Shown here one piece after another: positions 6,610 to 40,847 of a DNA stretch of 64,000 bases. The stretch covers positions 1-64,000 of IMG/VR virus record IMGVR_UViG_3300042090_002597; one strand, given 5' to 3'. Position 1 is the first letter of the stretch. Each line of letters begins with the position of its first letter. This stretch comes from a virus. The translations under genes and the position numbers were made by a program. Under the pieces are notes generated by a model. That model was not told the DNA's origin. It saw only the letters and a program-made list of their open reading frames with translations, and made no database searches.

Positions 6610-8055
6610 TCAAATCTCCTTCAACGCCTCCGACACATCGGAGATCACCTGGTTCCAGTCTCCACGCTTTTTCTGGCGAAACAGCCGTACAGACGGGTAC
6701 CAGGGCGTGGTGTCCGGGTCTTTCCCCCAGAGCCAGTAGGCATCATAGCAGAGCATCACGAAGCATCGCACGCCGAGAGCACCCGCGAGATGGGCGACCA
6801 TGGTGCAGCAAGTCACCACAACATCCATCTGCATCAAGGCGATACCCGTCAGTACAAGGTCGGATTCGATGTGCGGCCGCAAATCTTCCATGACCAGGTA
6901 CGCACCCGTACGCCCGAGATCGTCATGCCCTTCGCCGCATTGGAGCGAGTACAGGACATTCCGGGGGTCGGTGGCGAGATGCAGCATGTGCTCGATCGGC
7001 ACGGACCGTCGGACCTGCGTGGCGTTTTCCGGATTGCCGGTCCAGACCACGCCGATTTTCCGACACCCTTCCCGCGGCGGCAGCGGCATATTCACTTTTG
7101 CCGCGGCGTTCTGAGCCGCTACTCGCTGGCGGATATATCCGGGGTCCGGATAGATGTTGTCCAGCCGCGCGCCTGCGAAGTAGGCGAGGCTGTGCAGATA
7201 CACGCCATAATCATATCGCTCCGGTCCGTCCTGATCCGGCCACAAAATGCCGGAAGGAACGAAGTCGGCGACAGCCCGAAATTCCCAAAAAAGGTTCTGG
7301 TAGGACGTGTGAACATTCAATTTGATTCGAACATCTGGATATTTTTGCTTCACCCAGTGGATGTAGCGAGCGAACGCGATGCTGTCTCCGATCCCTTGCT
7401 CCGTCTGGATGAACAGTGTTTTTCCGTTCAGGTCCGATCCGTCCCAGTACGGCACGCCAAGAGGCGGCAACTTGAATTCCTTCATATTGCCGCCGACACG
7501 GTTTTCGTAAAGACGCAATCCTTCCGCCCAGTCACCTTTGGCCAGTAGCATGAGGGACAAGTGAATGGATTCAGCGCTGGATCGCTCGGGAATATCGGCA
7601 AGTCGGCGCATTTCATATTCTGCGCTGTCGTACTCTCCGAGAATACCCCACACAAGAGCCCGGTTGCTCTTGGCGTTCTCGTATTCCGGGATAATGTTGA
7701 TCGCTCTTTCGAACGCAAACAAGGAATCTTCGAACCTGCCGAGTGCATGCAGCGCGACACCAAGCTCGGCCCACGCCAAGCCGAACCGTGGCGCCAATGC
7801 AATAGCACGGCGCAAAAGTGCAATGGCTACGGCATAGCGTTTTTCCTGGATCGTCTCCACCGCCGTTTTGACAAGCGTAACGGCCTCTTCGCGTATTTTG
7901 GCTTCTTCTTCGGTCTCAGGCCGTCCGCGCAGCGTCTCGGCCGGGTTGACCGATATCACTCCGCCGTCACCCTCCGGTCTCGGAATTTGTGCAACCGTGC
8001 CGTCGAGATACGTTACCGTTATGAGCGCCGAAGGACCGGGACTGACGTCATCCAT
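6610..8055 (-). CDS. TPR-repeat protein with GT9-like glycosyltransferase domain
   Basis: TPR helices followed by EQGIGD, IGVVWTGNP, AHLAGALG and TPWYPSVRLFRQ...GDW motifs. Confidence 0.85.
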   Translation of the reverse strand: MDDVSPGPSALITVTYLDGTVAQIPRPEGDGGVISVNPAETLRGRPETEEEAKIREEAVTLVKTAVETIQEKRYAVAIALLRRAIALAPRFGLAWAELGVALHALGRFEDSLFAFERAINIIPEYENAKSNRALVWGILGEYDSAEYEMRRLADIPERSSAESIHLSLMLLAKGDWAEGLRLYENRVGGNMKEFKLPPLGVPYWDGSDLNGKTLFIQTEQGIGDSIAFARYIHWVKQKYPDVRIKLNVHTSYQNLFWEFRAVADFVPSGILWPDQDGPERYDYGVYLHSLAYFAGARLDNIYPDPGYIRQRVAAQNAAAKVNMPLPPREGCRKIGVVWTGNPENATQVRRSVPIEHMLHLATDPRNVLYSLQCGEGHDDLGRTGAYLVMEDLRPHIESDLVLTGIALMQMDVVVTCCTMVAHLAGALGVRCFVMLCYDAYWLWGKDPDTTPWYPSVRLFRQKKRGDWNQVISDVSEALKEI

Positions 8056-8346: not shown

Positions 8347-8625
8347 TCAACTAAACCCAAAAAGCCAGCCTTTTTTCTTTTTCGCCACATGCTTCGGCCG
8401 CCCGGGCTTCGACCTGGCCGCGCCGCAATTCGGGCATATCTCGCCGACAAACTGCCCGATACGAACGTCGCCCGGGTCCACCTGGACGCCCGGAACACTG
8501 TCCCAGCCACGATCAACGGAAGACTTGTACACCCCCGGCGCCCCACAGCGACCGCACGCACGAATGATCTGCGCCTGGATGCCGATCTTCGGTTTCGTCT
8601 CGGAAATGCTGATCTGCTCGGTCAT
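8347..8625 (-). CDS. Small zinc-ribbon protein
   Basis: CGRC and CPNC pairs. Confidence 0.55.
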   Translation of the reverse strand: MTEQISISETKPKIGIQAQIIRACGRCGAPGVYKSSVDRGWDSVPGVQVDPGDVRIGQFVGEICPNCGAARSKPGRPKHVAKKKKGWLFGFS

Positions 8626-8628
8626 GCG

Positions 8629-9543
8629 CTACGTATCCGTGATCGTCTCGGTGTCCTGAACCACTTCCAGGTTCACATTGATCCGCTCGATCAGATTGAA
8701 CCCGGTGAGGATTGTTACATCAAACACACCCTCCAGGTCAAACATGACGTCGGCCCAGTAGAAACCCGGCATCTGGCCAGTGAACTCATCGTGGGTGGTG
8801 CCTGATGTCGCCTGGAAAGAATGCCGGATATTCTGTCCAATCTGAGAGAACAAGGTGGCTTTCAGTGCCCGAAAAGCCATGAGCAGCGTGTCGCGATAGA
8901 AGTCCCGCTCATCCGCATTCTGACTGAACACACTGATCCGCCAGACCCGTCTTGCCCAACCCGGCAGCGTCCACAGATTGTCCGGTTTCGTAACCAGGAC
9001 AACATCCTGACCAATCATCGTATCGTTCTGTTGGAACAAATCCAGATTGACGACAATGAACGGTGTCGCTGCCAGACCGCCCTGCGGCATTTTTGTGCTG
9101 ACCTGAACCGGCGCTACCGCTACACCTGCTGGTATAGGAGCGTTATCGCAAGCCGCCTGGAGAAGGCGAATCAACAGCTGCGACAGCCCATCTGGCGTCG
9201 TAACTATTGACCCTGCGGGTGTAATTGGTCCGATTTGAGTAGTGCCAGTCGTATCAGTGGTCCGCCACACATACTGAAGAGTAGAATCCAAAGGCTGCGA
9301 AGACGTGCTTGGCCCGTCGCCAACGTCTGCCCAAATAGGAAGAGGCGTGCCGCTGTATATTTGAGTGAACGTGCCGAGTCCTGTAACGCCGGATACCGCC
9401 CGGGAGAGCGTCATCAAAGTAACCCCAGACGGCGGCGAAAAATTGCCTTGATCAGCGCCATAGAACTGTAGAAGCACGGCTCCGCCTACCGGTAGCGGAC
9501 TCGCAACAACAGGAGGGCCGGACCCACTCATTTGCTGAACCAA
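8629..9543 (-). CDS. Putative neck/tail-completion protein
   Basis: 304 aa, located between the head-tail adaptor genes and the sheath; the true start may be the ATG a few codons downstream. Confidence 0.55.
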   Translation of the reverse strand: MVQQMSGSGPPVVASPLPVGGAVLLQFYGADQGNFSPPSGVTLMTLSRAVSGVTGLGTFTQIYSGTPLPIWADVGDGPSTSSQPLDSTLQYVWRTTDTTGTTQIGPITPAGSIVTTPDGLSQLLIRLLQAACDNAPIPAGVAVAPVQVSTKMPQGGLAATPFIVVNLDLFQQNDTMIGQDVVLVTKPDNLWTLPGWARRVWRISVFSQNADERDFYRDTLLMAFRALKATLFSQIGQNIRHSFQATSGTTHDEFTGQMPGFYWADVMFDLEGVFDVTILTGFNLIERINVNLEVVQDTETITDT

Positions 9544-9584
9544 AATCCTCTTGACTTACGAAACACAGAGTAGCACGTTAACAG

Positions 9585-9655
9585 CATCCGGCGCTGCCAA
9601 GCGTAGTACTGTACGGTAAAGTATGGTCCGGTCAAGCACCGCAAGCCAAGGTTTT
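9585..9655 (+). ncRNA. NGY-NN pentamer tract A (putative guide RNA)
   Basis: ggc-gc tgc-ca agc-gt agt-ac tgt-ac ggt-aa agt-at ggt-cc ggt-ca agc-ac cgc-aa gcc-aa ggtttt; a TTGACT -35-like box lies at 9551. Confidence 0.8.
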
Positions 9656-9874
9656 TCAGGCAGCCGATTTCAGTTTTACGCCGCCTTCCACAAACTCGAC
9701 GCCCGCTCGCTCCAGCGCACTGCGGATTTTTTCAGCAGTGCTAACCCGGGCGTCCCGCGCTCCACCTTCAAATAGTTTTACGGTGATCTCGGCCACACCG
9801 CTCTGCGCGGCGAGGTCCGACTGACGAATCCCCAGCAGCGCCCGAGCAGCTCTGACTTGTCCTGCGGTTAGCAT
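9656..9874 (-). CDS. XRE/Cro-family HTH transcriptional regulator
   Basis: MLTAGQVRAARALLGIRQSDLAAQSGV...ALERAGVEF is a classic alphaproteobacterial XRE sequence; transcribed divergently from the Cas7-like gene. Confidence 0.9.
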   Translation of the reverse strand: MLTAGQVRAARALLGIRQSDLAAQSGVAEITVKLFEGGARDARVSTAEKIRSALERAGVEFVEGGVKLKSAA

Positions 9875-9929
9875 ATTAGGGACATACCACAGCGGCTCCG
9901 CAAAATACAACTGCGTAGTAAAAACATAC

Positions 9930-9958
9930 TTGACGTATCGTAAATCATTGTCTATAGA
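9930..9958 (+). promoter_or_regulatory. Sigma70-type promoter for tract B and the Cas7-like gene
   Basis: TTGACG-17 nt-TATAGA directly upstream of tract B. Confidence 0.65.
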
Positions 9959-9962
9959 TGTC

Positions 9963-10027
9963 AGTAGCGCGTCGTGACGCGTTGCTAGGCCATGCAGCGT
10001 GACGCTCTGCTTCGCAAACCAAGGAGT
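9963..10027 (+). ncRNA. NGY-NN pentamer tract B (5' leader of the Cas7-like gene)
   Basis: 11 consecutive NGY-NN units (9963-10017), then ACCAAGGAG, which overlaps the RBS. Confidence 0.75.
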
Positions 10028-10032
10028 TAGGT

Positions 10033-10620
10033 ATGAAAATCCATGTGACGATTGAGGGCACTACCCCTCTTCTGATGAACCGTTTCACCGAGCAGAATGA
10101 GGTAGCCCTTTCCAGCGGCACTAGTGCCTCATTCAAAGGCAGTCGAGGCACACCGCGGGAGCAGGCAACACCGAAATGCTACGCAGACGAAAATGGCATG
10201 CTGTATATCCCCGGTCCGAACATCTTCGCCACCATTATCGCAGCGGGCACCTTCCACAAGGCGGGTAAGTCGAAGTTGACCACCATGAAGTCCAGTCTCA
10301 TTCCGGCCGGGCTGTTAGTTGAGGACTTGGTCTGTTCGCTCAACACCGACAAGTGGGAGGTGGACAGTCGCTCGGTGGTGATTCCCAGCACCGGCGGTCG
10401 CGTGATGTGCCACCGGCCGCGAGTGGATCACTGGTCATGTTCGTTCACTCCGGATGTCGACGGCACCATGTTTGACCCGTCCCTGATCCGCGCCGTAATT
10501 GACGACGCCGGGAAGAAGGTGGGTCTGGGCGACTACCGTCCGGCACGCAAAGGTCCGTTTGGTCGTTTCGTAGTCAAGACGTGGGCTGTCGAGGATATCA
10601 AGTTGAAGAAGGTTGCATAA
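10033..10620 (+). CDS. Stand-alone Cas7/RAMP-superfamily RNA-binding protein
   Basis: 195 aa; N-terminal beta strand (I.V.IEG.TPLLM), YIPG..I helix motif and C-terminal glycine-rich loop GLGDYRP..KGPFGRF typical of RAMP/Cas7. No other cas genes and no CRISPR array nearby. Confidence 0.8.
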   Translation: MKIHVTIEGTTPLLMNRFTEQNEVALSSGTSASFKGSRGTPREQATPKCYADENGMLYIPGPNIFATIIAAGTFHKAGKSKLTTMKSSLIPAGLLVEDLVCSLNTDKWEVDSRSVVIPSTGGRVMCHRPRVDHWSCSFTPDVDGTMFDPSLIRAVIDDAGKKVGLGDYRPARKGPFGRFVVKTWAVEDIKLKKVA

Positions 10621-10625
10621 TATGG

Positions 10626-10706
10626 CGTGTTGTTCTTCCTAAAGTTGCTGTGCCACGTCAGGCGTCGCACCGTAGGGTTTTGTTAGGCAGTGCAAAGCAA
10701 GGTTTT
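10626..10706 (+). ncRNA. NGY-NN pentamer tract C
   Basis: 12 uninterrupted NGY-NN units from 10646, ending TGCAA AGCAA GGTTTT. Confidence 0.8.
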
Positions 10707-10723
10707 AGTTTATTACATTTTAG

Positions 10724-10784
10724 CGCATAGCGAAGTGGTGTATTGTCCTGTTTCGCAACGCACGGTGGTGTAGCGCAAGGTTTT
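10724..10784 (+). ncRNA. NGY-NN pentamer tract D
   Basis: 12 of 12 units fit NGY-NN, ending CGCAA GGTTTT; an AT-rich linker separates it from tract C. Confidence 0.8.
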
Positions 10785-10791
10785 AATTTAT

Positions 10792-10873
10792 AGCAGTATA
10801 CGGCCCTGCGCGGTTACGCGCGGTCCAGTGCAGCGCACTACTGCCTGGCGCTGTATAGCTTGGCGAGGTTTTT
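10792..10873 (+). ncRNA. NGY-NN pentamer tract E
   Basis: 14 of 16 units fit NGY-NN, ending GGCGA GGTTTTT. Confidence 0.8.
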
Positions 10874-10882
10874 AATTGCGTA

Positions 10883-11422
10883 TTAAACTAATCCTTGAGC
10901 CATCCCCCTGGCCATCGCAGCTAATGTTCCGGCTGGAGAATAAGCTGGCATGCTCGGGATGATCCAACTGTCCGCCGGAGAGTTCGGTCCGATCGATGCG
11001 AATCCACTGGACGTACCGGCACGCACTTCCGCCCACATCATCGGCCTGGCCGGACCGCCGCCAACACGCTTCAAACCGGTCATGGAGAGATGCTGCGCGC
11101 TGCCGACCGGCCGGTGTATCGGTATGGAGCGGCCGCGCAGCGCGGCAACGGTCTTCATGTCGAACGAACGGTGGCCTTCCTCCAGAAACAGCGCCTCCGG
11201 TGCCACACTTTCGTCCGCCAGGATTGCGACCGTGTTTTCGTCGACCTGCCTGAAACTCAGCGATGAAGCATAGCGGCCGCTTGGATAGAACAGCCGCTTG
11301 CCGTTCAACATGTCCTTGCCGAGCGCGAAATTCATCCATTTCACGAATATCTCTACACCGATCTCGGTGACGAGTTCGGGTGGAAGGTCCGTCTTGATGA
11401 CGAAGACATGCCCCGTGCTCAT
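10883..11422 (-). CDS. Putative neck/virion morphogenesis protein
   Basis: 179 aa; SGRY..S, LEEG...FDMK and WIIP motifs, resembling neck-region proteins of large myoviruses. Confidence 0.55.
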   Translation of the reverse strand: MSTGHVFVIKTDLPPELVTEIGVEIFVKWMNFALGKDMLNGKRLFYPSGRYASSLSFRQVDENTVAILADESVAPEALFLEEGHRSFDMKTVAALRGRSIPIHRPVGSAQHLSMTGLKRVGGGPARPMMWAEVRAGTSSGFASIGPNSPADSWIIPSMPAYSPAGTLAAMARGMAQGLV

Positions 11423-11439
11423 GCTTGAACTCTAGTTCG

Positions 11440-11550
11440 GGTAGTGCTACTTCTCGCATTGTGTTGCTTGGTGCTGCTGCGCCCGGTGTCGCAGGGTACA
11501 GCGTTGTTAGGCGGAGCCGAGCGCCGCACTGTAGTGCAATGCAAGGTTTT
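11440..11550 (+). ncRNA. NGY-NN pentamer tract F
   Basis: 21 of 22 units fit NGY-NN, ending TGCAA TGCAA GGTTTT; lies intergenically between two minus-strand neck genes, with TTGAAC at 11425. Confidence 0.8.
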
Positions 11551-11552
11551 CA

Positions 11553-12428
11553 TTACGGTCCTATTTTAGCACTGCCAACCATTACAGTGTACGGCCGCGC
11601 GGTGCCGCCGACCTGCACCGAGCCCGGCGCCGACTGGGTTACGCCGCGCTGCCTCGTCCAGAAGTCCAGCGACTGCAGCCGCCAGCGCTTCGGCTCATTG
11701 GCCATGCCGCCACCGAAAGCGCGCGTATGCGGCAGGCCGCCCGCGGCGCGGAACACCACATAGATCGGCGATGCCTGAAACTCGACCATGTAGTTGGTGC
11801 CTACCGGATAGCCGCCGATTCTCACCGTCGGACCGTCTGACGAATAGTTCTCGACCGGTACCACTGCGTTGCTGACCGGATCCCATACCGTCACCGCACC
11901 CTGCGGCTCGATCTGCAAATTCTGCTGGTACGGCAGGTTCTCTTTCACACCCACCTGCAGCACTGCGGTGTAGCGGATCAGCGAATCGACCGGCACAAAT
12001 TGATCATTGGTGGATGCGTTCTGCCAAATATTCGTCGGCTGGCCAGGATCGCCGACCGGCAGAGTGGGGTTCCAGTAAGGCACCGTCAACGAGGGTTCGG
12101 CGGTCTGCCACATGCCGTACGATTCGTTCATCCGCACACCCGGCTCGTCGGGGGTGGGCGAGACGTGCATGAAGGTAATTAGCACCTTGGCCGGAATGGA
12201 AGGCGGATCCCAGTAAGTGCCAACACCACCGCACTGGGTGCAGTTGCGCTGCGCCGAGCCCAGTTGCGGTAGTTGTCCGTTGGCGCCGCTGCCGGCGTAC
12301 ACGCACGGGCATGTGTGCGATTTCAGCCAGGAGCAGCGTTGCCCATGGGTCGCGATCAATGCCTCGAATGCCCCCGGCGGAAGGGCTTTCAGAGTCGGCG
12401 GAATGAATGAACCTGCGAACGCGCTCAT
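11553..12428 (-). CDS. Putative head-closure/neck protein with zinc-binding motif
   Basis: 291 aa; F..LI..HG...W.KS..CPC...C..C.G.G pattern. Confidence 0.6.
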   Translation of the reverse strand: MSAFAGSFIPPTLKALPPGAFEALIATHGQRCSWLKSHTCPCVYAGSGANGQLPQLGSAQRNCTQCGGVGTYWDPPSIPAKVLITFMHVSPTPDEPGVRMNESYGMWQTAEPSLTVPYWNPTLPVGDPGQPTNIWQNASTNDQFVPVDSLIRYTAVLQVGVKENLPYQQNLQIEPQGAVTVWDPVSNAVVPVENYSSDGPTVRIGGYPVGTNYMVEFQASPIYVVFRAAGGLPHTRAFGGGMANEPKRWRLQSLDFWTRQRGVTQSAPGSVQVGGTARPYTVMVGSAKIGP

Positions 12429-40675: not shown

Positions 40676-40779
40676 GCAATCTGCAATGATTATGGATCAT
40701 AATCATTGCAGATTGCTGATAGTTTGATATTGAATGGTTATGGCTCATAATTATCATATAGAATAGTTATGTTTCATAA
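40676..40779. promoter_or_regulatory. 19-bp inverted repeat plus three TTATG-N3-CATAA boxes
   Basis: GCAATCTGCAATGATTATG-GAT-CATAATCATTGCAGATTGC; boxes at 40690, 40738 and 40767. Confidence 0.65.
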
Positions 40780-40847
40780 TTATGTGTTGGCGCTGCAAAT
40801 TCAGGAAAAAATTAAATAAAATTTGAATTATTTTTGCCCGATTAGCC

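Follow-up and report, generated by a model that had tools for sequence, protein, structure and literature searches.

A VIPR-type cassette in a virus genome with putative guides against sibling alleles of the neighboring virion genes

In the first 64,000 nucleotides (nt) of the IMG/VR virus record IMGVR_UViG_3300042090_002597 (the window), a tract of tandem pentamers, tract A, lies next to the gene of a neck-like virion protein. We found that the locus is a VIPR system that uses the published code with a one-nucleotide skip; its mechanism is known, not new. VIPR is a CRISPR-related DNA silencer whose first descriptions are bioRxiv preprints of 2026. It combines the protein Vipr with guides (vrRNAs) of 9–16 or more pentamers of alternating GGY and NN, in which the skipped base falls on wobble positions (10.64898/2026.04.26.720920). 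Double-stranded DNA is recognized on either strand, no protospacer adjacent motif is required, and competing phages are silenced transcriptionally (10.64898/2026.04.26.720920). We consider it probable, at roughly 85%, that tract A is a phage VIPR guide gene which silences sibling phages at their virion genes and spares the resident alleles. Coordinates refer to the window, and genome-wide scans covered the full 105,740-base virus record.

Match of the guides to virion genes of relatives

Tract A (9588–9652, plus strand) consists of 13 NNNGY pentamers (CCGGC GCTGC CAAGC GTAGT ACTGT ACGGT AAAGT ATGGT CCGGT CAAGC ACCGC AAGCC AAGGT) followed by a T-run. The sequence and the period-3 matching delimit a guide part of ten pentamers (9588–9637, plus strand), the first two bases of which (N1N2) read cc gc ca gt ac ac aa at cc ca. 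A preliminary description of this DNA had given the same list, and re-reading the sequence showed it to be correct; in its NGY–NN register, the leading cc is preceded by CAT, not by NGY. The pentamer tract described there is real, with the qualifications that it is one of six and that its terminal three units are an unmatched tail. These units (ACCGC AAGCC AAGGT, reading ac aa aa), together with the T-run (9638–9656, plus strand), showed no pairing with the resident genome or with the related contig L013, and they are part of a conserved tail.

Reading two bases and skipping one, guide A matches the minus strand at 9111–9082 (CCG GTT CAG GTC AGC ACA AAA ATG CCG CAG, PVQVSTKMPQ), in frame with the gene at 8629–9543. 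The codons and the gene frame had been reported correctly. Our recount also reproduced the reported score of 18 of 20 read bases, with every skipped base at codon position 3. The mismatches of this resident near-target (9082–9111, minus strand) fall on unit 2 (GT for GC) and unit 5 (AG for AC), and the five 3'-proximal units (6–10) are perfect.

In the two-read, one-skipped pattern, each ten-unit sub-window of tract A was scanned along the plus and minus strands of the complete genome. The site at 9111–9082 was the best period-3 match to tract A in the 105,740 bases, and it lies 477 nt from the tract, in codon register. A comparison with shuffled NN order had been proposed in the preliminary description, and the match exceeded it: only 2 of 3000 shuffles reached 18. 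Random draws from the pooled NN pairs reached at least 18 in 5 of 3000 cases. Periods of 2, 4, 5, and 6 yielded nothing unusual, nor did other choices of dinucleotide from the pentamer. The gapped match of guide A is not a chance event.

The earlier suggestion that the guide spells the allele of a related phage was borne out by the relatives. The homologous site of L013, a metagenome contig with 87% protein identity, reads CCC GCG CAG GTG ACG ACA AAA ATG CCG CAG and matches at 20/20, so the perfect gapped target that was to be sought in relatives exists in a homologue. Two further homologues, P0122 and P0124, encode PAQVTTKMPQ at the aligned site. Their genes match at 20/20 because the first two codon bases are fixed for each of the ten residues; their match rests on the peptide, and that of L013 on DNA. 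Most other homologues carry PAQVTTKMP or PVQVTTKMP at this site. Guide A spells CCn GCn CAn GTn ACn ACn AAn ATn CCn CAn, which is the PAQVTTKMPQ allele of the closest relatives, and these are free of the cassette. As for the two deviating resident residues, Val (GTT for GCN) is a common polymorphism among the homologues, and only 2 of the 56 homologous alleles have Ser (AGC for ACN). The exact gapped pattern of guide A gave no match in IMG/VR and none in the GTDB genome collection; therefore, a match of this type does not arise randomly. Immunity to synonymous escape mutations, which had been inferred from the skipped wobble bases, is the published rationale of the one-nucleotide skip rule.

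Two other guides likewise spell alleles of neighboring virion genes. vrRNA E (10790–10869, plus strand) has 16 units, of which units 4–13 match the orthologue of the gene at 10883–11422, with 20/20 in both L013 and L015 and 17/20 in the resident gene. The resident near-target (10919–10954, minus strand; 20/24 over units 2–13, 17/20 over units 4–13) is the best match of guide E genome-wide; it is about 50 nt from the guide and in codon register. Relative to the perfect allele, it shows two amino-acid changes and a synonymous CTN-to-TTA change of a Leu codon at a read position. TTA accounts for 2 of the 107 Leu codons in four structural genes. vrRNA F (11438–11547, plus strand; 22 units) stands alone in the 130-nt gap between two genes. 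In L013, its units 8–18 have their match (20/22) at the 3' end of the g11553 orthologue, on the antisense strand. The resident near-target of guide F (11569–11601, plus strand) scores 17/22 overall and 12/12 for units 13–18.

In total, 60 of 62 NN bases match on the natural targets of guides A, E, and F, and all coding-sense sites are in codon register. The third base of the pentamer agrees with the skipped target base at 3/10, 3/10, and 3/11 positions (9/31), which is the chance level. On L013, N1N2 at period 3 scored 20, 20, and 18, and every other combination of dinucleotide and period scored 12–16. The gapped reading, two bases read and one skipped, is therefore upheld as first proposed, since only N1N2 at period 3 yields outliers. 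In A, E, and F, the last 3–4 units have no match and bear a conserved ending; therefore, they are tail and not guide.

The contig L019 provides an independent repeat, in the same gene family, at another site, and with a one-base resident mismatch. At the junction that corresponds to tract A, L019 has a solo vrRNA that ends in the same tail, GC AAGCC AAGGT TTTT (L019:501–580; the structural genes are on the other strand). The L019 guide was compared with the WVDAGDGPS site of the neck-gene orthologue. It matches at 18/18 in L033, at 19/20 in L018 and L047, and at 17/18 in L019 itself. No vipr was found in the 5.4 kb of L019 sequence scanned.

The cassette, its protein and its insertion points

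The 105.7-kb genome contains six NNNGY tracts of 11–22 units according to the genome scan, all on the plus strand and all within 9.5–11.6 kb. Besides A, E, and F, these are tract B in the vipr leader (9961–10015; 11 units) and the vrRNAs C (10644–10703) and D (10722–10781), each with 12 units. As annotated features that extend past the units, B runs to 10027, C to 10706, D to 10784, E to 10873, and F to 11550. Of the 86 units, 82 have G at position 4 of the scaffold, and every one has C or T at position 5; positions 1–3 are near random. All six tracts terminate in GC-AAGG(T/A), mostly followed by Ts, and the GC-AAGG ending is also present on related loci and on the solo vrRNA of L019. The best resident matches of guides B, C, and D reach 14–15/20, which is the background level. 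Despite their regular scaffolds, no target was found for C and D in the genome, in related loci, or in IMG/VR when exact 18-base gapped patterns were used. The exact gapped patterns of C, D, and E had no match in IMG/VR.

Two other roles for the tracts were considered and rejected. The predicted folding of the tract RNAs was in no case better than that of shuffled sequences (z-scores from −0.7 to +0.6), which speaks against a role in RNA secondary structure. A TRAP-like or Csr-like repeat RNA that titrates a protein was the first idea; it was dropped after the protein fold and the target matches had been obtained.

Upstream of tract A, a −35-like hexamer TTGACT (9551–9556, plus strand) is located about 32 nt 5' of the first canonical unit, with a weak −10 element. 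L019 has TTGACG at a comparable distance upstream of its guide. The consensus promoter scan called no plus-strand promoter for tract A. The tail of tract B (CGC AAACC AAGGAG; 9961–10032 region) overlaps the ribosome-binding site of vipr, and an overlap of the tract B type is also present in L004, L005, and L007. This arrangement could couple guide binding to vipr translation.

The vipr gene (10033–10620, plus strand) encodes a minimal RAMP protein of 195 amino acids (aa), which was assigned through phrog_4652, the predicted fold, and homology to phage SUSP1. Vipr proteins in general are RAMP proteins of about 20 kDa with a single RRM, a glycine-rich loop, and a thumb. Its structure model has a pLDDT (predicted local distance difference test) of 94.9, and the best Foldseek hits are Cas7 (type VII) and Csm3 of type III (E value 5e-7, probability 1.0). 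In a tblastn search, Vipr matched a 195-aa open reading frame (ORF) of SUSP1 (NC_028808.2, 28474–29061), with 26% identity and a pairwise E value of 9e-14. The tract scan showed that this SUSP1 ORF is flanked by NNGGT arrays, one upstream and three downstream.

The glycine-rich loop GLGDYRPARKGPFGRF of the protein aligns with GVGDWRPRFGRF in SUSP1. The aligned residue pairs (here/SUSP1) include D167/D177, Y168/W178, R169/R179, and R128/R138. In SUSP1, R138, W178, and R179 hold the second G and the Y of the scaffold, and His17 contacts the first scaffold G (10.64898/2026.04.26.720927). His17 falls into an alignment gap relative to the present Vipr. In this alignment at 26% identity, the missing counterpart of His17 would fit the relaxed first scaffold position.

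Relatives of Vipr form 2276 clusters at 50% identity (E value up to 0.001). At ten homologous viral loci (L002–L011), NNNGY tracts accompany the gene in all cases and a divergent helix-turn-helix (HTH) gene in most. In the cassette, an XRE-type HTH gene (9656–9910, minus strand; Pfam HTH_3) is divergent from vipr. Homologues occupy the same position in L002–L005 and L007, with more distant ones in L003/L008. The HTH gene appears to be a conserved partner of vipr, a candidate vap or cassette regulator. In VIPR systems, vap denotes an accessory gene whose product has a DNA-interaction domain. A homologue of the cassette HTH (57% identity) is also found beside the g11553 orthologue in L020 (1727–1972), and the 8.9 kb of L020 sequence scanned contained no vipr or tracts.

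The relatives reveal where the cassette was inserted. In L013 and other relatives, the orthologues of the genes at 11553–12428, 10883–11422, and 8629–9543 abut or overlap, and there is no vipr, HTH gene, or tract between these three genes. Here, insert 1 (1.34 kb, 9544–10882) holds A, HTH, B, vipr, C, D, and E, and insert 2 (130 nt, 11423–11552) holds F. Guides A, E, and F bracket the two insertion points; at these points, the genes of the relatives join seamlessly. The distances to the resident mismatched target copies are 477, about 50, and about 20 nt, respectively.

The target of guide A (8629–9543, minus strand) is a gene for a neck or tail-terminator-like virion protein, with a likely true start at the ATG at 9533. 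The earlier label of a neck gene is backed by the predicted fold: the model (pLDDT 80) yielded the neck chain of phage 812 (8qkh_G), lambda gpU, and T4 gp15 in Foldseek. The gene is located between the major head and tail sheath genes. We found 56 homologues of the protein; in GTDB genomes, there was one relative only, in a Proteobacteria metagenome-assembled genome. The target of guide E (10883–11422, minus strand) is a 179-aa virion-module gene with 89% identity to L013 by tblastn. An ORF at 10872–11459 (minus strand, 195 aa) was rejected as the middle gene, since it is in the wrong frame (52% vs. 89% identity to L013).

Several other features of the region were recorded. For a 92-aa ORF (8347–8625, minus strand) that directly follows the neck gene downstream, the only matches were weak and zinc-ribbon-like (E values 0.015–0.08). 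Also downstream is a 481-aa ORF with TPR repeats (6610–8055, minus strand), which is unusual in a structural region. Tandem Repeats Finder detected no repeat array with a 20–40-nt period in 9.4–11.7 kb, and the Pfam and PHROG scans of the neighboring ORFs gave no cas-family match. The cassette had no blastn match among GenBank phages. Elsewhere in the genome, Tandem Repeats Finder reported a 36-nt unit in 3.3 copies with 74% matches (49556–49672), and a 29-nt unit is present twice at 40727–40783.

Sparing of the resident genes and rival explanations

By analogy with the published work on SUSP1 and Pseudomonas fulva, copies of Vipr would coat the vrRNA, one per pentamer. They would bury the conserved G-Y, in this clade probably also the preceding unconserved base, and display the two variable bases. 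The resulting filament would bind double-stranded DNA with dinucleotides spaced by one skipped base and block transcription. The computed matches point to the same one-nucleotide skip in recognition here. Such a system would silence late virion genes of sibling phages infecting the same cell, and the resident genes would be spared through differences at 2–5 read bases. The guides would be placed beside these resistant alleles so that recombination between siblings keeps weapon and antidote together. The preliminary description had suggested that the two mismatches of guide A may protect self, and we infer the same.

A number of observations weigh against this reading. The resident genes match 90%, 85%, and 77% of the read bases of guides A, E, and F, respectively. 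With 90% over ten units, of which the five 3'-proximal ones are perfect, the self match of guide A exceeds the 80% target cut-off of the preprint. Moreover, 16 of the 57 alleles can reach at least 18/20, and the resident allele also reaches 18/20. Self and many of the presumed targets are not distinguished by the score alone. The mismatch positions differ: they are at units 2 and 5 in the resident allele, and many relatives have one only at unit 10. Discrimination, if there is any, must depend on the mismatch location. In SUSP1, silencing was lost on a GGY>AGY change, and here the first scaffold base is not G; the way in which this clade binds its RNA must therefore differ to some extent. With about 15–20 nt and no predicted structure, the tail contrasts with the pseudoknot tail of about 40 nt in SUSP1. 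The perfect target of guide A is represented by one 2-kb metagenome contig and two database proteins. Finally, period-3 matches of guides within 4 kb were marginal at the ten other Vipr loci (5 of 23 tracts at p<0.1); therefore, a guide beside its target is not universal in the Vipr family.

Could the match to the neck gene be a coincidence, found by trying many decodings by eye? The six tracts and several possible decodings were available to the earlier reader, and 18/20 is reached genome-wide in roughly 0.1–0.2% of shuffles per tract. The site is, however, the top match of the whole genome; it keeps codon register, and its distance to the tract is 477 nt. Two other guides, too, match best or nearly best no more than 100 nt away from themselves, the orthologous site of L013 gives 20/20, and the pattern is absent from the IMG/VR and GTDB collections. 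We regard the probability of coincidence as negligible. Pairing of all three variable bases with uninterrupted codons, with wobble mismatches as the outcome of allele divergence, is very improbable as well. It would agree with the lack of conservation at pentamer position 3 in this clade and with the match of the third base to the wobble base at 5 of 10 positions on the resident gene. On the best targets, this agreement drops to 3/10, 3/10, and 3/11, as compared with 60/62 for NN. Furthermore, L013 and L015 both match guide E at 20/20, yet they differ at most of the skipped positions.

Self-regulation deserves more attention, and we still consider it unlikely. Guides A, E, and F might bind their own neck-module genes imperfectly and throttle or time late transcription, e.g., during lysogeny or early infection; the perfect matches of relatives would then reflect common ancestry only. 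The self matches of 77–90% lie around the 80% cut-off used in the preprint for natural targets. The units close to the 3' tail are perfect on self (A 6–10, F 13–18), where assembly starts in SUSP1, and a footprint of six units or 18 bp has been discussed as functional in the case of SUSP1 vrRNA4 (10.64898/2026.10.15.759431). The three sites belong to a single operon, and the cassette that interrupts it is in antisense orientation. Nevertheless, the non-self allele matches better than self for all three guides and also for the L019 guide, and published VIPR guides have no self matches or lower scores on self than on non-self. Silencing of essential virion genes would be costly. The resident Ser, present in 2 of 56 alleles, and the rare TTA at read positions resemble avoidance, not tuning. 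Silencing of sibling phages with sparing of the resident genes is the reading that we favor.

The presumed silencing of siblings invites a further step, which we put forward tentatively and hold to be possible rather than probable. The guides and the resistant target alleles may constitute a linked weapon–antidote module, a selfish unit among sibling phages. If silencing of the neck operon of a co-infecting sibling favors recombinants that inherit the cassette together with its resistant flanks, VIPR cassettes would spread by a drive-like process without a nuclease. It would also explain the odd substitutions and rare codons at read positions in the virion genes of this group.

Relation to known systems

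The free-standing homing endonuclease genes and other poison–antidote or homing modules resemble the cassette in placing a weapon beside a resistant target copy, with sensitive copies in the insert-free relatives. This is an analogy only, as the cassette contains no nuclease and there is no evidence that it is copied into the target genome.

Vipr shares its fold with the class 1 CRISPR backbone formed by Cas7/Csm3 on CRISPR RNA. As published for VIPR, one protomer binds per RNA unit, and a thumb periodically breaks the duplex. The period is 5 on RNA and 3 on DNA in VIPR, as opposed to 6 on both in CRISPR. VIPR also lacks a CRISPR array, a processing repeat of the Cas6 type, and adaptation genes, and its guide is interrupted instead of being a continuous spacer.

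Stand-alone guides, such as tract F and the L019 guide, have counterparts in the solo vrRNAs of VIPR-null SUSP1-like phages and F5 satellites (10.64898/2026.10.15.759431). There, in the conflict between phages and satellites, self scores are also lower than non-self scores (10.64898/2026.10.15.759431), which is read as autoimmunity avoidance. The published solo vrRNAs target vipr genes, other vrRNAs, satellites, and host decoy repeats, whereas the guides here adjoin the targeted gene, and the resident allele is mismatched.

The closest counterpart is type II VIPR of SUSP1 and of a Pseudomonas fulva prophage. Common features are the 195-aa RAMP protein, guide genes upstream together with a downstream array, and tandem pentamers with two read bases each and a one-base skip on wobble positions. 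The targets are on either strand and belong to competing phages in both cases. In the published structures, one protomer binds per repeat, GGY is sequestered, a gapped R-loop triplex is formed, and assembly proceeds from the 3' end of the guide (10.64898/2026.04.26.720927). The scaffold is N-G-Y here and G-G-Y there; a 'YNNNG' variant is named in the VIPR preprint (10.64898/2026.04.26.720920), and there in the methods only. The tail here is a short GC-AAGG-T-run with no predicted pseudoknot, and the partner gene is a divergent HTH gene instead of the downstream vap1. The targets are sibling orthologues of the phage's own virion genes, in contrast with the satellite or lysogeny regulators targeted there. 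Resident near-matches reach 77–90%, whereas the preprint, in which natural targets were called at an 80% cut-off, reports no self match of at least 80% (10.64898/2026.04.26.720920).

The available text of the three VIPR preprints contained no description of a linkage between guides and resistant alleles. Of the present results, the linkage between guides and the mismatched targets of the resident genome at the insertion points, a pattern that recurs in L019, most deserves to be followed. It suggests a testable logic, in which it is kept by sibling recombination and possibly leads to drive-like spread. Set against the known systems, the locus indicates that a distant and very large Vipr clade with an N-G-Y scaffold and a minimal tail likewise uses the published VIPR code. 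It also offers a natural example, in which each of three adjacent virion genes is spelled by a guide in the form carried by cassette-free siblings, and the resident copy deviates at read positions.

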